In this document: positions 28,760 through 52,488 of the stretch, in pieces
Layout of the letters: each line of letters opens with the position of its first letter
How positions within the stretch are numbered: the first letter of the stretch is position 1
Origin: Candidatus Dadabacteria bacterium
GTDB taxonomy: Bacteria; Desulfobacterota_D; UBA1144; Nemesobacterales; Mycalebacteriaceae
DNA: 64,000 nt
Direction of reading: 5' to 3'
NCBI GenBank assembly: GCA_026708565.1
Contig: JAPOUR010000032.1
Coordinates: forward strand, 9,081-73,080
The notes under the pieces: model-generated
What the model was told of the DNA's origin: nothing
Database searches by the model: none
What the model saw: only the letters and a program-made list of their open reading frames with translations
Made by a program: the position numbers and the translations under genes

Positions 28760-30160
28760 TTGTTAACAATGGCAAAGCGAAACTTTGAAAACCGGACACT
28801 GTATCACGGAGACAACCTCAAGTTCTTGATGGAAATGAACTCTGGAACCATTGACTTGGTAGCAACCGACCCGCCGTTCAACAAGAGTAAGGATTTCCAT
28901 GCCACACCAGACAGTTTGGCCAAGGGTGCTAAATTTCAAGACCGATGGTCGTGGAAAAAAGATGTGCAACAGGAATGGGTTGACCAGATAACTGATGACC
29001 ATCCTGCACTCAAGGAATCTATTGAGGCAGCTAGAGCAGCGCACTCCGATGGTATGGGAGCATTTTGTTGCTTCTTAGCGGTGAGGCTTTTGGAAATGAA
29101 GCGCATCCTTAAACAGACTGGCTCCATATACATTCACTGCGACCCTACAGCAAGCCATTACATAAAGACCATTATGGACGCAATTTTCGGCAGGAAAAAT
29201 TTCATCAACGAAATAGTTTGGAACTATGAGAAGTGGACTAATGCGGGGAATATTTTCCAACGAAACCATGATCTAATCTTGTTTTACGGAATGCCAGAGT
29301 ACAAATTCAACAAGCAGTACGGAGAACGCACACAGAGGCAGAAATCACTTATGAAGGCCGGGTACAATTTGGGTTCCAGTAACGGGGTTCGGCTGGTCAG
29401 GATATACGACAAAAATAACCCGAATGTTGTGAAAAAACTCTCGGAATGGAAAGCGGAGGGGCGGGCAGTCTACTATGTGGATGAACCGGAAGGCAAGGCA
29501 CTATCAGATGTTTGGGACATTCCATCCCTGAATGGGCAGGCAAAGGAGCGATACGGCTACCCGACTCAAAAGCCTCTCGCCTTATACGAAAGAATAATAG
29601 AGACATCCAGTGACGAGGGAGATGTCGTTCTTGACCCATTCTGCGGTTGTGCTACGACATTGGTTGCCGCAGAAAGGCTGAAAAGAAAGTGGGTCGGCAT
29701 GGACATATGGGATGAAGCGAAAGATGCTGTCATCAAAAGGTTGTCTAAGGAAGGGAAACTCAATTCTGATCAACTGAGCAGTCCAGAAACTCTCTTCTAC
29801 TGGGATAAGATTATATATGAAACTACGCCGCCAGAACGTGCGGATAATGACATCAAGGAAGACCGTCCCGTATATCAGGTGCCAGAAAGATTTCAAGAGC
29901 CGGGGCAGAAAATGGGGCGACAGGAAATGGTAGAATACCTGCTGAAACACAACGGCCCCGTATGCCAAGGATGCGACAGAGAATTCAGTGATCCTCGCTA
30001 CTTGGAACTAGACCACAATACACCTCGTTCAGATGGGGGGCTCAACCACATAACCAACAGGGTATTACTGTGCGGTCCTTGTAACAGACTGAAAAGCAAT
30101 AGGTTCACCCTGAGTGGATTGCGTAGAGAGAACAAGAAACTCGGTTACATGGCTGATTAA
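28760..30160 (+). CDS. Beta-class DNA N6-adenine/N4-cytosine methyltransferase fused to a C-terminal HNH endonuclease domain.
   Basis: Motif IV LVATDPPF (aa ~35-42) precedes motif I VVLDPFCGCATT (aa ~290). The HNH domain is CQGCDREF...LELDHNTPRSDGG...NRVLLCGPCNRLKSN (aa ~400-450). Confidence 0.75.
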   Translation: MLTMAKRNFENRTLYHGDNLKFLMEMNSGTIDLVATDPPFNKSKDFHATPDSLAKGAKFQDRWSWKKDVQQEWVDQITDDHPALKESIEAARAAHSDGMGAFCCFLAVRLLEMKRILKQTGSIYIHCDPTASHYIKTIMDAIFGRKNFINEIVWNYEKWTNAGNIFQRNHDLILFYGMPEYKFNKQYGERTQRQKSLMKAGYNLGSSNGVRLVRIYDKNNPNVVKKLSEWKAEGRAVYYVDEPEGKALSDVWDIPSLNGQAKERYGYPTQKPLALYERIIETSSDEGDVVLDPFCGCATTLVAAERLKRKWVGMDIWDEAKDAVIKRLSKEGKLNSDQLSSPETLFYWDKIIYETTPPERADNDIKEDRPVYQVPERFQEPGQKMGRQEMVEYLLKHNGPVCQGCDREFSDPRYLELDHNTPRSDGGLNHITNRVLLCGPCNRLKSNRFTLSGLRRENKKLGYMAD

Positions 30161-30184: not shown

Positions 30185-31021
30185 TCACTTAGTAGGTAAA
30201 TCTTTATTTGGCGAAAAAAGTTCATGCTCAAAGAAGAAATCCTCTGGCAATTGTATGTTGCATTTAATCCCCATTTTTTCATCGAACAAAACAAATGTCA
30301 TTGTCATATACTTTGATGATAAGCGCATGTAATCGGCCTCCATGAAAGGATTATACCTCACTATTGGCACTAAATGCCCCTTGTGTAAAGGATTGGTGCA
30401 CGGTCTAACATTATGCATTCCAACATGTTGCCACATATTATGTACCGCTCCACTAAGTGGAACATAGGCATATTTATAGGTAGACTCTCTACCTATTTCT
30501 TTTGCCATTTCTCTTGCTGACATACCCGACCATGACCCTACATTAACTTCTGTAGCCCATTCAGCCAACTGACTATTTAACCAAGACTTCTTTCCTTGTA
30601 TCGTTCTTTCTAGCATATCTAAGTCGGAAGGGTCGGTGCATTTACTGATGGATTCTTCCAAGAACTCTATGTATAATTTTTCTTGACCTATACCATACTC
30701 CACATACTGCTTACTACGACTTTTTGGATCTTCCAGTATCCATGCCATAGTGATATACGCTTCTACCATGCATCGAAGAAACAACGGAGCAATGTGTGAA
30801 TTCCAAGTGGACGGAGCGAAAGCCATCTCCGTTGTCAAAATAACCTGTCTAGACAATAAAGCTCCGATACTCTCATGTATATGCTTATCATAAATCTCCG
30901 GTTTGACTTGTTGCCACCGAGCATCAAAACCATCTCTAACAATTTCTACATATACATCGATAAAATCATTCAGTAATTCGTTCTTGTCAGTCTCTACTTT
31001 ATCACTCATTTTGCTCACCAA
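30185..31021 (-). CDS. Hypothetical protein B, 278 aa, in an AT-rich region. It is convergent with the methyltransferase gene, 25 bp away.
   Basis: Long ORF in a locally low-GC segment with no recognisable catalytic motifs. It is overlapped by 20 bp by upstream gene A. Confidence 0.55.
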   Translation of the reverse strand: MVSKMSDKVETDKNELLNDFIDVYVEIVRDGFDARWQQVKPEIYDKHIHESIGALLSRQVILTTEMAFAPSTWNSHIAPLFLRCMVEAYITMAWILEDPKSRSKQYVEYGIGQEKLYIEFLEESISKCTDPSDLDMLERTIQGKKSWLNSQLAEWATEVNVGSWSGMSAREMAKEIGRESTYKYAYVPLSGAVHNMWQHVGMHNVRPCTNPLHKGHLVPIVRYNPFMEADYMRLSSKYMTMTFVLFDEKMGIKCNIQLPEDFFFEHELFSPNKDLPTK

Positions 31022-31772
31022 ACCTACATTGACTAATCTCTACACCGCAGTTCCAAAAACATCTAGCCCAAGTATTGTCGAGATTAAGCACTCCAAATTC
31101 GCCCAATCCATTTATTCGTAAGAGCCCAGCAGCATGTTCCGCTTCCTCGCTACCGGGCTTATTGATAACGGCATCGAAATCTGGCGAATCCATATCAGAT
31201 GGAAAGTGAGTGGTTCCTGTCACAAGGCGGAATAAGAGCATAGCACCGTGTAAAACAATACCGGGTGTCTCGTATTTATTAACCGTTTTTCCTACACATT
31301 CTTTGATACGAAAAACAAGTTCTTCCCTTGAAAATACATTGCTTGGTGGCCCTATGAAGATTAGCGGGCAGTCATCATAGAGTAGCACAAGTGGCGCAAT
31401 AGCATCTCGAATTACATCCAGAATTTCACTTTTCTTGAACAATTCAACTAATCTGATTTTCTGTTTCGTACTCAGGCATCTAAAACTAGATATAAGAGAA
31501 AAGTTGCTCTGCTGGTCATCTTTTTTTATTTCATTTACCGCTATGAAGATTGTTTCCAGTATGCGAGTCCCTTCAATATAGCCAACTTTCTCATTTATAA
31601 GTCCAATCCACACTAATTCTGGGAGCATATCATCTACATAACTTACAGATTTCATAGGAATCTGTTTTATTGGAGGTATAAACCGCTTCCCTATTCTCTT
31701 ATGCCCTTCAAGAACTTTTCGTCTTTGTTGCTTCCCTTTGTTCTTCTGTTCATTGTGACTTTTGACTACCAT
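31002..31772 (-). CDS. Hypothetical protein A, 256 aa, with a basic N-terminus (KNKGKQQRRK). It is the first gene of a two-gene AT-rich cassette.
   Basis: Long ORF with an AT-rich 5' intergenic region upstream (31773-31980) and a 20-bp overlap with gene B. Confidence 0.55.
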   Translation of the reverse strand: MVVKSHNEQKNKGKQQRRKVLEGHKRIGKRFIPPIKQIPMKSVSYVDDMLPELVWIGLINEKVGYIEGTRILETIFIAVNEIKKDDQQSNFSLISSFRCLSTKQKIRLVELFKKSEILDVIRDAIAPLVLLYDDCPLIFIGPPSNVFSREELVFRIKECVGKTVNKYETPGIVLHGAMLLFRLVTGTTHFPSDMDSPDFDAVINKPGSEEAEHAAGLLRINGLGEFGVLNLDNTWARCFWNCGVEISQCRFGEQNE

Positions 31773-32180: not shown

Positions 32181-32741
32181 TCAATTCCCCACCGGCACAT
32201 AAGAGCAAAACACCACCGCCGCCACGACAGTCGTCCACAGCCCCTTTTTATCGCCGAAGGCGCTCTGAGTTACATTCTGCGTCTTCACATCATGCCCGCT
32301 TATCTTCCATATATCTTTCTGCTCATCGTAACTCTTTTCCATGTTGAACGGCGCTCCCAGAGTTGTGGCAAGCATATAGGCGGCAAGGTCTTCCGCATAT
32401 TCACCTGCCTGAGACCTGTTCTGCCCGAAACTGTGATGCTCCGATATGTAGCCGAACCTGCTCTTCTCATTCGGCAACGCCAAACCGGCGGACGCCGCAA
32501 CCAAGCGGTTCGGCTCATTGGTGGCGTTGTCGCTCATGACAACATGAACTATCTGCCCCGGAGAGAGCAGTCTCGCGCCCTTTGAGCGGGGCACTATCTT
32601 ACAGTAGGGGGGAAAGATACTGGACACCCTCACAAGGTTGAACTGCGCTATCTTTGCGTTCCTGAGCGCCATCTCAAAACTGGCAAGTTTTTCCTTGCTT
32701 TTTCCGACTCCCTTTGTAACAAAAGCTGTGGTTGGAATCAT
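32181..32741 (-). CDS. pdaD: Pyruvoyl-dependent arginine decarboxylase.
   Basis: MIPTTAFVTKGVGKSKEKLASFEMALRNAKIAQFNLVRVSSIFPP matches the PdaD N-terminus; 186 aa. Confidence 0.8.
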   Translation of the reverse strand: MIPTTAFVTKGVGKSKEKLASFEMALRNAKIAQFNLVRVSSIFPPYCKIVPRSKGARLLSPGQIVHVVMSDNATNEPNRLVAASAGLALPNEKSRFGYISEHHSFGQNRSQAGEYAEDLAAYMLATTLGAPFNMEKSYDEQKDIWKISGHDVKTQNVTQSAFGDKKGLWTTVVAAVVFCSYVPVGN

Positions 32742-47414: not shown

Positions 47415-48211
47415 GCACACCTTTTTTACTTGCGGCGATAGGGGCTTTGCTCCTGTTTATGGGGGCAAAGATACTCAAAGAGTATGAGCGGGGGGTGGTT
47501 ATGCGTCTTGGCCGCGTGGTCGGCATCAAGGGGCCGGGGTTTGTCTGGATAATCCCCTTCATAGATAAGATGACAAAGATAAGCCTTCGCGTAATCGCGA
47601 TGGATGTTCCGCCTCAGGATGTCATCACCAAAGACAATGTTTCAGTGAAGGTGAACGCCGTTCTTTATTTCAGGGTCGTCAACCCGATAAACACCATAGT
47701 GAAGGTTGAGAATTACTATTACGCCACGTCCCAACTTGCGCAGACAACACTGCGGAGTGTGCTGGGGCAGGTTGAGTTGGATGAGTTGCTGACCGAAAGG
47801 GAGGAGCTCAATATGAAGTTGCAGGAGATTCTGGATTCTCAAACGGATGACTGGGGAATCAAGGTTACTCTTGTGGAGGTCAAGCATGTTGACCTGCCTC
47901 AGGAGATGCAGCGGGCGATGGCTCAGCAAGCCGAAGCGGAGAGGGAGAGAAGGGCGCGAATAATAAGCGCGGAGGGAGAGTTTCAGGCGTCGCAGAAAAT
48001 ATCCGAGGCGTCCGAGGTTCTTTCAAAAAATCCCGTGTCTCTTCAGTTGAGGTATTTGCAGGCAATGTCGGACATATCGGGCGAGCACAATTCAACCATC
48101 ATTCTGCCGCTTCCGATTGACATACTGAAGCCGTTTGCGGAAAGAGCCGCGGGCGGCGCTCCGATTCAAAAAGCGGTGAGCGGGAAAGACCCTTTCAAAG
48201 CGCCGGAGTGA
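47411..48211 (+). CDS. SPFH/band-7 stomatin-like protein.
   Basis: Sequence ...[30 protein letters not shown]..., overlapping nfeD by 4 bp. The nfeD-stomatin operon is canonical. Confidence 0.8.
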
Positions 48212-48241
48212 TAGAGCAGTGTAAGACTGTTTCGCGTTGTT

Positions 48242-49546
48242 ATGATTAAACATCTCAAGATGAGCAATGTGGGACCAGCTCCGGCTATGGAGTTGGAGTT
48301 TGGCGACAGACTGAACCTGCTCACGGGGGATAATGGATTAGGCAAGAGTTTTCTGCTGGATATAGCATGGTGGGCGATGACCCGCATATGGCCAGCGGAG
48401 TTAAACACGAATCTGACATCGGGCAGGGTGGCGTTGCCTACTGAGAAGAAACAGAAATCTGAAATCAGTTATTCCTTCTCCGCATTCTCTACGAACACAA
48501 AACCACATACCAGCACTTATGAACCGGAAATCCAAAGTTGGTCTGCTCCAAGTTGGCCTGCTCCAAAAGGGAGACCCCCAAACCCCGGATTGGTGTTTTA
48601 TGCCTTGGCCGACGGTAGTTTTGCAGTTTGGGACCCCGCCAGAAATTACTGGACAGCACAAACCGGGAACGGAGAACGTCCGGTTGCTTATGTGTTCAGC
48701 CCCAAAGAGGTATGGGATGGATTGCAACGCAAAGACGGTTCTTGGCTTTGCAACGGACTGATTCGCGATTGGGCTGGCTGGCAAAAAGAAAAAGGACAAG
48801 CTTTCCAGTCCTTAAAGGATGTGCTGGAGGTTTTGTCACCGTCCACTGAGGAAAAGATTACTCCCGGCGAGTTGACACGCATCAGTTTGGATGATGTGCG
48901 AGACATGCCGACATTGAAAATGCCTTACGGTCAGGATGTCGCCGTAGTCCATGCGTCTGCGGGAATGCGCCGGATTATTTCTCTGGCTTACTTTCTGGTC
49001 TGGTGCTGGGAAGAACATGTCAAAGCCAAGAAATTGCAGGGAGATGAAGATGAACCGGAAAAAGGTGTGGTCTTTCTGGTTGATGAAGTTGAGGCACACC
49101 TCCATCCGAAATGGCAACGCATGGTAATCCCGTCCCTTCTAAAGGTTATGGAAACTCTAACAGAATCCGTCCCTGTGCAACTGATAGTAGCAACTCATTC
49201 ACCCTTGGTTATGGCCTCGGTGGAAACGCTGTTTGACAACGAGAAGGATGCTTGGTTTGACCTTGACCTTAAAGACAATGAAGTCGTTCTAACCCCTCGG
49301 CCCTTTGTAAGGCAAGGTAATGTTGCTCATTGGCTGACAAGCGCAGCCTTTGATTTGGAGTCCGCTTACGGCTCTGATGAAATCAAAAAAGTACTGGAAG
49401 AAGCCTCCTTTGCTTTGAGCAATGAAAATTTCAGTAAAGAAGAAGCAAAAAAGTTAGATAAGCGCCTGAGAAAAGTCTTGTCAAGTACCGACCCCTTATG
49501 GGCACGGTGGCGTTTTGAGGGCGAAAAAAGAGGGTGGCTACGATGA
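48242..49546 (+). CDS. ptuA: Septu PtuA-like ABC-type ATPase of the AAA_15/AAA_21 family.
   Basis: Walker A LLTGDNGLGKSF and Walker B/H-loop VVFLVDEVEAHLHP...VATHSP, with a long insert between them. It is coupled by a 13-bp overlap to an HNH gene. GC is about 49%. Confidence 0.65.
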   Translation: MIKHLKMSNVGPAPAMELEFGDRLNLLTGDNGLGKSFLLDIAWWAMTRIWPAELNTNLTSGRVALPTEKKQKSEISYSFSAFSTNTKPHTSTYEPEIQSWSAPSWPAPKGRPPNPGLVFYALADGSFAVWDPARNYWTAQTGNGERPVAYVFSPKEVWDGLQRKDGSWLCNGLIRDWAGWQKEKGQAFQSLKDVLEVLSPSTEEKITPGELTRISLDDVRDMPTLKMPYGQDVAVVHASAGMRRIISLAYFLVWCWEEHVKAKKLQGDEDEPEKGVVFLVDEVEAHLHPKWQRMVIPSLLKVMETLTESVPVQLIVATHSPLVMASVETLFDNEKDAWFDLDLKDNEVVLTPRPFVRQGNVAHWLTSAAFDLESAYGSDEIKKVLEEASFALSNENFSKEEAKKLDKRLRKVLSSTDPLWARWRFEGEKRGWLR

Positions 49547-50148
49547 TTCATGTCAAGTTGCGACCGGAGCCTGATACATTCAATAGCAGGGTTAGGCAAA
49601 AAGGTCATGCTTGGATGAACAAACACCAGACTCTACCGCCCAGCAATAAATTCCCTCGCTACTGGAAAGATTGTCTGGATGATTTGCGTTCAAGTTATAA
49701 AGACCATTGCGCTTACCTCGCCGTACAGATTGAAGAAGTTGAAGGAGAATACCCTTCTGTGGATCACTTCTTAGCAAAATCGAGACGACCCGACCTTGCA
49801 TACGAATGGAGCAACTATCGTCTTTCATGCTCAGAAATAAATAGTCTCAAAGGCAACTCTGATGATGTATTAGACCCGTTTGAAATAAAGAACAACTGTT
49901 TTCATCTTGATCTTGAATTTTTAATCGGGCATATCTACTCCAATAAGGCACTACCGCCTGACCAAAGAGAGGGGATTCAAGCGACTATAGATAAGCTCAG
50001 ATTGAACAATGATAAATATCGGGAGATGAGGGAGCAACATTACCAAGATTGCCGTGAGGGACACTACGACAGCGATTACTTGAAACGCATATCTCCCTTT
50101 GTTTGGTCGGAGGCTAAACGGCAGGGGTTGCTGAAAGATAACGGCTAA
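49534..50148 (+). CDS. ptuB: Septu PtuB-like HNH endonuclease of the TIGR02646-like family, with a partly degenerate zinc finger.
   Basis: Sequence HCAYL...VDHFLAKSRRPDLAYEWSNYRLSCSEINSLKGN retains the HNH His/Asn residues, but the second Cys of each CxxC pair is replaced. Confidence 0.6.
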   Translation: MATMIHVKLRPEPDTFNSRVRQKGHAWMNKHQTLPPSNKFPRYWKDCLDDLRSSYKDHCAYLAVQIEEVEGEYPSVDHFLAKSRRPDLAYEWSNYRLSCSEINSLKGNSDDVLDPFEIKNNCFHLDLEFLIGHIYSNKALPPDQREGIQATIDKLRLNNDKYREMREQHYQDCREGHYDSDYLKRISPFVWSEAKRQGLLKDNG

Positions 50149-50183
50149 CCAACCACCCGTATTGGAGTTGAGAGGAAACAAAC

Positions 50184-51035
50184 ATGAAAACAGAAACCAA
50201 AGGCGGCAGGACCGCCCTGATAAGGGCTGCAAAAGAAGGCGATACCAATAAGATACGGAAATTGCTGAAAGCAGGGGCAAACATAGAAGCAAAGGATAAT
50301 GAGGGTAGGACGGCTCTTATAATCGCAACAGAATATGAGCGCTCTCAAGCAATGGGGTTACTGTTGAAAGCAGGAGCGGATACAGAGGCAAGAGCAAAGA
50401 AGCGCAGACGGACATCTCTGATGATTGCGGCGGCAAGAAGCGGAACAGGTAGGGTGGCTGAACTACTGAAAGCAGGGGCAAACACAGAAGCAAAAGATAA
50501 TGAGGGCAGGACGGCTCTTATAATCGCAACAGAATATGAGCGCTCTCAAGCAATGGGGTTACTGTTGAAAGCAGGAGCGGATACAGAGGCAAGAGCAAAG
50601 AAGCGCAGACGGACATCTCTGATGATTGCGGCGGCAAGAAGCGGAACAGGTAGGGTGGCTGAACTACTGAAAGCAGGGGCAAATACAGAAGCAAAGGATA
50701 ATGAGGGTAAGACGGCTCTTATAATCGCAGCAGAAAACGGGCACTCTCAAACAACGGCGGAGCTACTGGAAGCGGGAGCAGACATAGAAGCAAAAGATAA
50801 ATATGGCGGAACAGCCCTTATAGTAGCAGTAGGAAACGAACATCATAAAGTAACGGCGGAACTACTGAAAGCAGGAGCGGCAAAAGGTGAAAATGGCAGA
50901 AAACTTCACAAAGCAACAGCCCTTCGGGAAGCAAGAGACCTCTGGGAGAAAACAAGAAAAACCAATATAAGTAGCAAGACCACCCTAATAAAGGCTACCA
51001 AAAAGGCGATACCAACAAGATACGAGAATTGCTGA
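50184..51035 (+). CDS. Ankyrin-repeat protein, N-terminal part of a probably frameshifted gene.
   Basis: About 8 ANK repeats (GRTALIIA...LLKAGA). The reading frame continues in the +2 frame after an A5GG tract at 51000-51006. Confidence 0.6.
   Translation: MKTETKGGRTALIRAAKEGDTNKIRKLLKAGANIEAKDNEGRTALIIATEYERSQAMGLLLKAGADTEARAKKRRRTSLMIAAARSGTGRVAELLKAGANTEAKDNEGRTALIIATEYERSQAMGLLLKAGADTEARAKKRRRTSLMIAAARSGTGRVAELLKAGANTEAKDNEGKTALIIAAENGHSQTTAELLEAGADIEAKDKYGGTALIVAVGNEHHKVTAELLKAGAAKGENGRKLHKATALREARDLWEKTRKTNISSKTTLIKATKKAIPTRYENC
50271..50740. repeat. Near-perfect 201-bp tandem repeat, about 2.3 copies, encoding 67-aa double-ANK units.
   Basis: Units start at 50271, 50472 and 50673. 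Copies 1 and 2 differ at only a few positions. Confidence 0.9.
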
Positions 51036-51940
51036 AAACAGGGGCAAACATAGAAGCAAAAGATAACCGAGGCAGGACGGCTCTTATAATCGCAACAGAA
51101 TACGAGCACTCTCAAGCAATGGGGTTACTGTTGAAAGCGGGAGCAGATACAGAAGCAAGGAGAGAGATGCGTAGGTGGACACCTCTGATGATTGCGGCAA
51201 GATTTGAAACAAGTAATCTGGCGGAACTGCTGAAAGCAGGGGCAGACACAGAAGCAAAGGATAATGAGGGCAAGACAGCCCTTATAATCGCAGCAGAATA
51301 CGGGTGCTCTCAAGCAACGGCGGAGTTACTGAAAGCGAAGGCAGACATAGAAGCAAAGGATACATATGGCAGAACAGCCCTTAGAGTAGCAACAGGAAAA
51401 AGACGCCATAAAGTAACGGCGCAACTGCTGAAGGCAGGGGCGAGAGTAGAGGAAGCGAAGGCAGGGGCAAAAGTAGGGGAAGCAAGAGAAACCAATATAA
51501 AAGTTCAGAGCCCGGATGCCCATAAAGTTTCTTTCTCCACAGAAGCGGAGTTAGAAAACTTTATTTGTTCGCATTGGTACCACACTATCTTTGGCAATGC
51601 TTTTGACATTTACAAAGACACGGAAGGGCGAAGCGGCAAGCAATACCCCACGGACCTGAGAGAGCGGATTGATATTCTTGCCATAAGCAATGACAAGGAA
51701 ACTTTTCTTGTCATTGAACTGAAAGTGGGCAAAGCCCCCGATACCGTTGTCGCACAATGCCAGCGTTACATGGGCTTTGTCAAAGACAAAGTGGCAAAGA
51801 ACGGCCAGAAAGTGCGGGGAGCCATAGTAGCCACAGAAAAAGACAAGAAGATGGAACGGGCTTTGTCAGAAGCATCTAATGTTGACTTCTACACCTACAA
51901 GGTTGACTATAAGGCCGTTCAAATGAGCAGAGTTGAGTGA
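51029..51940 (+). CDS. Ankyrin repeats followed by a C-terminal PD-(D/E)xK nuclease-like domain (NucS/DUF91-like or Shedu-like). This is probably the 3' part of the same gene as 50184..51035.
   Basis: ANK repeats, then RIDILAISNDKETFLVIELKVGKAPDTVVAQCQRYMGFV, which carries the D...E-x-K core and the QxxRYMG motif. Confidence 0.55.
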   Translation: MLKTGANIEAKDNRGRTALIIATEYEHSQAMGLLLKAGADTEARREMRRWTPLMIAARFETSNLAELLKAGADTEAKDNEGKTALIIAAEYGCSQATAELLKAKADIEAKDTYGRTALRVATGKRRHKVTAQLLKAGARVEEAKAGAKVGEARETNIKVQSPDAHKVSFSTEAELENFICSHWYHTIFGNAFDIYKDTEGRSGKQYPTDLRERIDILAISNDKETFLVIELKVGKAPDTVVAQCQRYMGFVKDKVAKNGQKVRGAIVATEKDKKMERALSEASNVDFYTYKVDYKAVQMSRVE

Positions 51941-52488
51941 GTTCCGCCGATTTGGAAAAACTCCCGCCACTGTTTATAATGCGCGCAAATACCGGATTTG
52001 CGGTGCCCGAAATGGTTTTCAGTCAGAACGAAATAGGGTCGGAACGACTGCTTTTTGAAGTGTCAAAAAGCGCCGGGTGGCTGACCAATATAGAAGAAAT
52101 GGCGGACGGCAGCGGGGAAACAACCCTCGGCTCCCGCATTCTTTTCAGCGCGGGCGTTGAGAAGATCGGCGCACAACTGCATGTCTGCGGCGAAGTGTCG
52201 TTTGAGGTTGTGTCGCGCTGCTCAAGATGCCTCGGCTCTGCAAAAGAACGGGTGCGCAGCCCGATAGAGTCCTTTCTGCCCATGCCCGGCGGCGGAAACG
52301 TCATAGACATCTCGGACGATATGAGGGAACATGTGGCAATGGCAATGCCGCAGAGAGTGGTGTGCCGGAGCGAGTGCAAAGGACTTTGCGCCGGATGCGG
52401 GGCAAACTTGAATGAAGGTTTCTGCGATTGCGCAAGCGACCGGACTGACCCGCGCCTCGGCGCGCTGAAAGACGCCCGGACGGCCTGA
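51937..52488 (+). CDS. yceD: YceD/DUF177 family protein, needed for large ribosomal subunit and 23S rRNA accumulation.
   Basis: C-terminal Cys cluster CSRCLG...CRSECKGLCAGCGANLNEGFCDC. Its position immediately upstream of rpmF is conserved. The start is uncertain. Confidence 0.7.
   Translation: MSSADLEKLPPLFIMRANTGFAVPEMVFSQNEIGSERLLFEVSKSAGWLTNIEEMADGSGETTLGSRILFSAGVEKIGAQLHVCGEVSFEVVSRCSRCLGSAKERVRSPIESFLPMPGGGNVIDISDDMREHVAMAMPQRVVCRSECKGLCAGCGANLNEGFCDCASDRTDPRLGALKDARTA

Follow-up and report, generated by a model that had tools for sequence, protein, structure and literature searches.

A family of small methyltransferase-HNH fusion proteins with shuffled target-recognition domains, candidates for single-chain restriction-modification enzymes in bacteria and archaea

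Results

A methyltransferase-HNH gene in a Dadabacteria contig

This study deals with a 64,000-nucleotide stretch of contig JAPOUR010000032.1 (positions 9,081 to 73,080; assembly GCA_026708565.1) from a Candidatus Dadabacteria bacterium, hereafter the window, and with a gene in it whose product joins a DNA methyltransferase to an HNH nuclease domain at the C-terminus. In the list of open reading frames (ORFs) of the window, the longest ORF at this place lies on the + strand at 28760..30160 and codes for 466 residues from a TTG codon. The N-termini of the family align with MAKRNF..., which starts at the ATG at 28769, and a public protein of 463 residues (P0001/MCY4047260.1) is 100% identical to the window protein. 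For both reasons, the ATG at 28769 is most likely the real start. A first-pass annotation of the sequence had described a single 466-residue polypeptide. The fusion in one chain stands, with the restriction and modification domains in one uninterrupted ORF, and the length is most likely 463 residues instead. Residue positions are given in the 463-residue numbering, and coordinates are collected in Table 1.

The motifs of the methyltransferase part follow the circularly permuted order of beta-class enzymes, namely IV, VIII, target-recognition domain (TRD), X and I. In Pfam, PF01555 (N6_N4_Mtase) matches residues 31-324 with an E-value of 1.2e-46 and PF01844 (HNH) residues 402-448 with an E-value of 3.3e-9, both over their gathering scores; HNH_5 and Endonuclease_7 match the HNH tail under their curated cut-offs. 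NCBIfam gives sub-threshold local matches only, to adenine methyltransferases including CcrM for the N-terminal part (73.6 bits with the CcrM model versus a cut-off of 830) and, for the tail, to the HNH domain of IscB or Cas9d. The MTase_II and MTase_III models of PADLOC match the methyltransferase part (MTase_III, E-value 5e-37). The tail has the two CxxC pairs and the Asp-His and Asn residues of an HNH domain (C399-x-x-C402, D415-H416, N430, C435-x-x-C438 and N439), and the beta-beta-alpha core is present in the structural model. Both the beta-class order, which had been proposed from DPPF lying ahead of LDPFCGCATT, and the canonical nature of the C-terminal HNH domain are therefore borne out: the motif positions and Pfam agree with the former, and for the latter all catalytic residues had been read correctly, PF01844 is matched and the residues are 95-100% conserved.

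Table 1. Positions of the fusion gene, its parts and its neighbours in the window, and of features in related loci (L numbers; positions are those of the respective locus). aa, amino acids; AdoMet, S-adenosylmethionine; MTase, methyltransferase; TSD, target-site duplication.
Feature	Position	Strand	Remarks
Complete MTase-HNH gene	28769..30160	+	463 aa plus stop; 100% identity to MCY4047260.1
Catalytic lobe, beta-class Type III Mod-like methyltransferase, aa 1-151	28769..29221	+	Pfam PF01555; motif IV through motif VIII
Motif IV DPPF, residues 34-37	28868-28879	+	in 98/98 members
Motif VIII NEIVW, residues ~147-151	closes the catalytic lobe	+	family alignment
TRD slot, aa 152-262	29222..29554	+	between motif VIII and motif X; hypervariable across the family
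AdoMet-binding lobe, aa 263-325	29555..29743	+	motif X and motif I; Pfam PF01555
Motif X GYPTQKP, residues ~263-269	within the AdoMet-binding lobe	+	family alignment
Motif I LDPFCGCATT, residues 288-297	29630-29659	+	DPF.G in 98/98 members
Methyltransferase-HNH linker, aa 326-398 (~70 aa)	29744..29962	+	partly conserved (PPxRTD, EPxG); predicted flexible
C-terminal HNH (beta-beta-alpha-metal) with Cys4 zinc site, aa 399-463	29963..30157	+	Pfam PF01844
Schlafen AlbA_2 and HATPase_c_4 protein, 402 aa	27541-28749	+	weak PADLOC matches to pAgo-associated models
DitA-like ORF, 278 aa, DUF5677	30185-31021	-	like its sibling at 31002-31772, matches part of the PADLOC DitA model
DitA-like ORF, 256 aa, no Pfam match	31002-31772	-	overlaps the 30185-31021 ORF
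Paralogue arrays	L040 1842-5778 and 9985-11223; L076 4708-7257; L087 4032-6658; also L080, L086, L005		two to four copies
IS1595-family unit in L014	4895-8397		24-nt terminal inverted repeats; transposase, two small ORFs and fusion; perfect 8-bp TSD TTTCCTTT
IS1595-family unit in L038	492-4192		50-nt inverted repeats; perfect 8-bp TSD AAAACTTA
IS1595-family unit in L023	1957-5711		8-bp TSD matching 7/8; also encloses an OMPdecase ORF (4590-5363)
Element in L107	4729-7529		both repeats, no duplication; IMG/VR viral contig
HNH-less relatives	L111 2465-4108; L112 2992-4737		Hippo gp48 (L111); Rhizobium sp. Pop5 plasmid (L112)
Frameshift-split fusion copies	L023 2970-4372; L024 2685-4243; L026; L037; L038		

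Conservation and distribution of the family

All of the 120 homologues listed have both Pfam domains. They are 409-514 residues long and 53-60% identical to the query, which they cover to 94-100% (98-100% in all but three cases). Five of them, from Dadabacteria, Nitrospinae, Chloroflexi and Gammaproteobacteria, carry a name at their source, which is simply "DNA methyltransferase"; most are unnamed. At least 486 relatives are found in one metagenome collection. With the linker-plus-HNH tail, about 300 representative clusters (50% identity) are matched at E<=1e-10 among 1.84 billion representatives, many of them fragments. A scan of genomes revealed copies in Poribacteria, Anaerolineae and the archaea Nitrosopumilus and Cenarchaeum, and the family is common in metagenome-assembled genomes assigned to Dadabacteria, Poribacteria, Chloroflexota, Cenarchaeum and Nitrosopumilus. 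It thus occurs in both Bacteria and Archaea, with a patchy distribution and horizontal transfer. The architecture had been called atypical, and it does differ from every characterised Type IIG/IIL enzyme, but with such numbers of relatives it is not rare.

The conservation of the catalytic residues was assessed in 98 full-length fusion ORFs from the retrieved loci, which are 38-60% identical to the query. The methyltransferase motifs DPPF and DPF.G are present in all of them. So are C399, C402, D415, C435 and N439 of the HNH domain, and H416 is found in 97 of the 98 sequences, N430 and C438 in 95 each. Conservation at 95-100% shows that the two domain assignments are not chance matches and indicates that both active sites have been kept by purifying selection. 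Over all the loci, 101 of the 129 family ORFs have both domains in one ORF. Three ORFs of 612 residues (L028, L029 and L030) align to query residues 1-440 and run some 150 residues further; the one that was scanned, in L030, has no Pfam HNH match, and its C-terminus may be different or degenerate.

Among phage records, none covers at least 80% of the fusion protein. In a search of 72,556 plasmids, one of the 715 matching records covers at least 80% of the query, and six viral contigs were matched, three of them without the HNH domain. On these counts, a plasmid-borne family was rejected, as were a phage origin and a homing endonuclease. The near-absence from cultured phage and plasmid records is probably the reason why the family has escaped study. 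No description of it was found in full-text literature searches aimed at the family, REBASE lying outside this comparison. Judging from their sequences, these proteins form a large, apparently unstudied group of small, single-protein methyltransferase-HNH enzymes.

Variability and shuffling of the target-recognition domain

In beta-class enzymes, the TRD sits in the variable stretch between motif VIII and motif X. Mean pairwise identities were calculated region by region for 38 aligned members. The catalytic N-lobe (78%), the motif X-I block (residues 249-325; 70%) and the HNH domain (79%) are well conserved, and the linker shows 40-56% identity. The sub-slice of the TRD at residues 173-248 has a mean identity of 14%, and its length ranges from 31 to 125 residues.

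Exchange between members was analysed with a set of 207 unique proteins, in which classes were defined from a tight core-TRD slice without conserved flanks. In 512 pairs, the scaffolds are at least 85% identical and no similarity is detectable between the TRDs; conversely, 78 pairs have scaffolds less than 62% identical and TRDs that are 50-78% identical. The 207 members fall into 32 core-TRD classes, and the class of the window protein comprises 23 members, whose scaffolds vary widely in identity to that protein. As read from these alignments, TRDs are shuffled between family members. Several loci contain tandem paralogues, up to four copies per contig in L040 and two each in L076 and L087, with 80-95% identity between scaffolds and 12-27% between TRDs. 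In L087, the stop of one paralogue overlaps the start of the next, and the two scaffolds are 95% identical.

Recognition cassettes shuffled on a conserved scaffold are also known from the Type III mod alleles, from HsdS and from the MmeI family, and here they point to diversifying selection on DNA specificity. A housekeeping methyltransferase would be expected to have a single specificity and to be inherited vertically. The family has 32 TRD classes, shuffling, multiple paralogues per contig and a patchy distribution instead. No simple-sequence repeats are found in the window gene, which makes phase variation unlikely.

A sister architecture with a different nuclease, and split copies

The nearest relatives that lack the HNH domain are gp48 of the Streptomyces phage Hippo (547 residues) and the plasmid protein WP_008534093.1 of Rhizobium sp. 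Pop5 (581 residues). Both are 38-39% identical to the query over residues 11-325, and both have a nuclease of the PD-(D/E)xK type (Mrr_cat/NA-iREase1) at about residues 402-516, equivalent to the position of the HNH domain. This sister architecture therefore shares the methyltransferase scaffold, the C-terminal position of the nuclease and an annotation as methyltransferase only. It differs by an unrelated nuclease fold and by its presence in cultured phages and plasmids, from which the HNH form is all but missing. That two unrelated nuclease folds occupy one position on one scaffold suggests that nuclease activity is the selected function. The top-listed matches from Streptomyces and Mycobacterium phages cover the same residues 11-325, i.e. 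the methyltransferase part.

Proteins with this HNH subtype nearly always have the methyltransferase scaffold described here. A few outliers, such as P0277 and P0286 (541-582 residues), combine it with an N-terminal bacterial PH domain (bPH_3) in place of a methyltransferase. About 230 short ORFs named "HNH endonuclease" in the protein database are 65-80% identical to the tail. We considered whether they could be independent genes, which was ruled out because they lie directly behind a methyltransferase ORF and are thus frameshift-split copies of the fusion.

Predicted structure

An AlphaFold2 model was computed from the family alignment; its predicted local distance difference test score (pLDDT) is 75.9 and its predicted template-modelling score 0.67. 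Confidence is low in the TRD (residues 202-238) and in the linker, with pLDDT below 50 at residues 334-345 and 365-378. The core of the HNH domain is modelled as beta strands at 412-414 and 433-435 and a helix at 436-442. The model matches the folds of CcrM (top match), M.BceJIV, RsrI and MboIIA (1g60) with E-values of 1e-15 to 1e-16, and also those of M1.HpyAVI (5hfj) and the Mod subunits of EcoP15I and Mbo45V (4zcf, 7dsu). The strongest PDB alignments lie in the AdoMet-binding lobe (residues 263-325), and the HNH domain is of the McrA/IscB/Cas9-like type. No solved structure spanning both the methyltransferase and the HNH domain turned up in the sequence and fold comparisons with the PDB. 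The Asp of DPPF, in place of a Ser, and the adenine specificity of the best matches suggest that the product is N6-methyladenine (m6A).

Carriage by IS1595-family transposons

Neighbouring genes were clustered over 111 loci, which represent about 100 independent contexts. The single neighbour family to recur across unrelated genomes is a DDE transposase of the IS1595 family (Pfam PF12762 and PF12760). Seven neighbourhoods that were inspected all show a solitary gene amid unrelated housekeeping genes. A partner gene, be it a Res-like helicase, a second methyltransferase or a specificity subunit, was sought and rejected, none being present in the 111 loci or the seven neighbourhoods; in particular, there is no helicase gene beside the fusion in the roughly 100 contexts or in the window.

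At three loci, L014, L038 and L023, the fusion is carried by a complete, bounded IS1595-family unit, and L007, L041 and L063 contain partial elements. The common tip of the repeats, GGGRATTATAWAC, occurs 11 times in 0.91 Mb versus 0.11 expected. Altogether, a trace of IS1595 is found in about 10 of the roughly 100 independent contexts (about 10%). Bounded units with target-site duplications mean that some lineages have the fusion as transposon cargo. This does not hold for the window copy: there is no similarity to a transposase, no inverted-repeat tip motif and no convincing insertion sequence remnant or flanking repeat.

According to PMC11891212 (citing Siguier 2009) and PMC5704250, transporter insertion sequences (tIS) that carry passenger genes are a recognised class within the IS1595 family. 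The elements described here are like tIS such as ISNha5, MTnSag1 and tISCpe8 in having a DDE transposase with a zinc ribbon (PF12762, PF12760) and terminal inverted repeats of 24-50 nt, in duplicating 8 bp of the target and in enclosing one or more passenger genes between the repeats (PMC5704250, PMC11891212). They differ from them in that the passenger is a methyltransferase-nuclease fusion, not a regulator or resistance gene, and the window copy lies outside such an element. An IS1595 element carrying a methyltransferase was not found in the literature searches.

The transposon-borne copy of L014 sits in a dense defence island (L014 1-4500 and 8700-15341) with genes for a Type I HsdM and HsdS, an AAA_15/AAA_21 ATPase, a DUF4365-TPR protein and a C5 methyltransferase beside an HEF_HK histidine kinase.

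Neighbourhood of the window gene

In the window, the fusion gene belongs to a small, mosaic, low-GC island with other defence-type genes. The GC fraction goes from 0.55 in proA to 0.51 in the AlbA_2/HATPase_c_4 gene, 0.47 in the MTase-HNH gene and 0.39-0.40 in the two DitA-like ORFs. The value of about 0.55 is that of the host, whose neighbouring genes range from 0.53 to 0.59, and host-like GC resumes at 32181. The AlbA_2/HATPase_c_4 gene begins 2 nt past the proA stop, and 19 nt separate its own stop from the start codon of the fusion gene. No sigma-70-like site was found upstream of the window gene on the + strand, and co-transcription with the upstream gene is possible. Downstream, the 278-residue ORF matches the C-terminal positions 307-449 and the 256-residue ORF the N-terminal positions 5-235 of the 486-residue DitA model of PADLOC. 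From these matches, the two overlapping - strand ORFs resemble a DitA-like defence gene that is split or made up of two ORFs; a literature search on DitA and DUF5677 found only unrelated papers. Neither the AlbA_2/HATPase_c_4 gene nor the DitA-like genes were retained as partners of the fusion, as the neighbour clustering shows that they adjoin it in this genome only. A second low-GC stretch of the window, at 48001-52000 (GC fraction 0.475-0.478, AT skew up to 0.37), is perhaps a further island of acquired DNA.

Discussion

Our analyses lead us to favour, with moderate confidence, the view that the members of this family are minimal single-chain restriction-modification enzymes, in which one TRD would direct both methylation and cleavage. 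The hypervariability and shuffling of the TRD, the conservation of both catalytic centres, the solitary gene and the displacement of one nuclease fold by another in the sister family argue for it. Three functions had been proposed in the first-pass annotation, and the minimal restriction-modification fusion is the one that gains from these four lines of evidence; for a modification-dependent nuclease, nothing was found in support.

Such an enzyme would be of Type IIC/IIG by function and, by ancestry, a Type III Mod-like, beta-class N6-adenine methyltransferase. We infer the following course of action. The central TRD would recognise a short DNA site. The methyltransferase core would use AdoMet to place m6A on the host copies of this site, and the HNH domain, on its flexible linker of about 70 residues, would cut or nick the DNA at or near unmarked sites. 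Beta-class methyltransferases of this kind (CcrM, RsrI, MboIIA) work as dimers, and in a dimer two HNH sites could act jointly to give a double-strand break. As recognition would lie in one exchangeable cassette, swapping the TRD would retarget both activities together, which would explain the shuffled TRDs and the tandem arrays with differing TRDs. The gene would spread horizontally as a solitary unit, travelling with an IS1595-family transposon in some lineages. The signs of mobility, i.e. the IS1595 units, the presence in Bacteria and Archaea, the low GC and the defence-type neighbours, fit a selfish or a defence gene.

The family does not embody a new principle; it consists of abundant, unannotated and apparently uncharacterised compact enzymes with modular specificity and transposon carriage. 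Like the Type IIC/IIG/IIL enzymes (MmeI, BpuSI, Eco57I and the TspGWI/TaqII family), they have a nuclease and a methyltransferase in one chain, encoded by a solitary gene, with a single TRD presumed to direct both activities, and they share with the MmeI family a conserved scaffold with exchangeable specificity (PMC2731913, PMC4833311). In the characterised enzymes of these types, the PD-(D/E)XK nuclease is N-terminal, the methyltransferase is of the gamma class and the TRD lies at the C-terminus, in about 850-1100 residues (PMC2582602, PMC3185434). In contrast, the methyltransferase of the window protein is of the beta class with the TRD at its centre, and the HNH domain closes the chain of 463 residues. 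With none of the prototype features of a PD-(D/E)XK nuclease, a gamma-class methyltransferase and more than 850 residues, the protein would be a new structural variant, outside both the MmeI and the BpuSI sequence family.

The resemblance to the Mod subunits of Type III systems (EcoP15I, Mbo45V and the modA/modH alleles) lies in the methyltransferase: the beta class, the order of motifs, the TRD between motifs VIII and X and a highly conserved scaffold on which TRDs behave as shuffled alleles are common to both. However, no Res gene is adjacent in the roughly 100 contexts, the nuclease is fused and of the HNH type, and simple-sequence repeats that could drive phase variation are lacking. Beta-class methyltransferase and HNH modules also occur together in Type IIS systems (MboII, HpyAV and MnlI), which work with the two as separate proteins. 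R.MboII, R.HpyAV and R.MnlI belong to the HNH enzymes and cleave a few bases away from their site (PMC4081073). There, the nuclease stands apart as a protein of its own and has a DNA-recognition domain, which the tethered HNH domain described here lacks.

Several observations weigh against the restriction-modification reading. The methyltransferase is the sole part that PADLOC recognises, and our literature searches found no methylation or cleavage data for any member. The family may also be catalogued in REBASE already. The AlphaFold2 model does not place the HNH domain with confidence relative to the DNA cleft. A fused enzyme must avoid cutting host sites before they are methylated, and no mechanism for this is apparent from the sequences. 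Finally, the frequent frameshift-split copies may reflect decay, hinting at weak selection or toxicity, or else long-read assembly errors.

Carriage by mobile DNA suggests another beneficiary. The gene might be a selfish maintenance or addiction module of its carrier, such that loss of the element, and with it of methylation, would result in post-segregational killing by residual nuclease, with phage defence as a by-product. The bounded IS1595-family units, the further elements in L007, L041, L063 and L107, and the 11 repeat tips versus 0.11 expected are in line with this idea, as are the passenger genes established for the IS1595 family (PMC11891212, citing Siguier 2009; PMC5704250). We nevertheless consider it unlikely, since about 10 of roughly 100 contexts have a trace of IS1595 and the window copy has none; in any case, the biochemistry would be identical to that of the restriction-modification enzyme, the difference being the beneficiary and not the mechanism. 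Mobility would also suit an orphan methyltransferase whose HNH domain has a non-restriction role, either nicking in repair or recombination or cutting for gene or transposon movement or homing. Its appeal comes from a gene without a partner that is annotated as a methyltransferase only, from an HNH domain of the McrA/IscB/Cas9-like type, which is also found in nucleases of mobile elements, and from the association with transposons at some loci. Hypervariable, shuffled TRDs, up to four of them on one contig, are nevertheless unexpected for a fixed-target enzyme, whether housekeeping or homing, and the family is patchily distributed and passed on horizontally. As the three target-site duplications are unrelated in sequence, homing would lack a fixed insertion site. 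All this makes a non-restriction role distinctly unlikely.

The remaining alternatives concern the nuclease itself. Modification-dependent cleavage, as in Type IV systems, or gating of the nuclease by the AdoMet or DNA state of its own methyltransferase had been put forward in the first-pass annotation, and HNH is a common effector in McrA, TagI and VcaM4I (PMC12707154). Pfam found no reader domain (SRA, EVE/PUA, winged helix or RAMA) in the protein; besides the methyltransferase and HNH families, it gives only a sub-threshold match to N6_Mtase. A conserved, intact methyltransferase site would also be pointless in a pure Type IV enzyme, and we regard this mode of action as very improbable. Similarly, there is little chance that the HNH domain is catalytically silent and serves an ordinary methyltransferase as a zinc finger for DNA binding or dimerisation, although CcrM-type enzymes need an extra C-terminal DNA-binding domain and CcrM is the top fold match. 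Indeed, beyond the zinc cysteines, the general-base His and the metal-binding Asp and Asn are 95-100% conserved, and the sister family substitutes another nuclease fold rather than another DNA-binding fold.

If members of the family are active as restriction-modification enzymes, a working system would be obtained from about 450 residues, by tethering a generic HNH domain to a Type III-like methyltransferase. This would be a third structural solution beside the MmeI/BpuSI-type and Type ISP enzymes. The 32 or more natural TRD cassettes on one scaffold would amount to a panel of new specificities and, as the MmeI family was, to a simple system for working out recognition rules, at half the size. 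It is tempting to go further and to see in these proteins the smallest known class of self-sufficient restriction-modification enzymes (about 410-510 residues), with cassette TRDs, tandem arrays and travel as IS1595 cargo between bacteria and archaea, that is to say an immunity or addiction gene that is borne by a transposon and reprogrammable by nature, and a compact basis for new sequence-specific nucleases; this wider proposition is a tentative one, which we hold to be possible rather than probable.

Carriage by IS1595-family transposons would then clearly exemplify how an insertion sequence can mobilise a gene for immunity or addiction. Because the genes are labelled only "DNA methyltransferase", the restriction capacity of uncultivated symbionts is probably under-counted. 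PF01555 and PF01844 have both been reported to be enriched in sponge microbiomes (PMC12284385), and the family may contribute to this enrichment.

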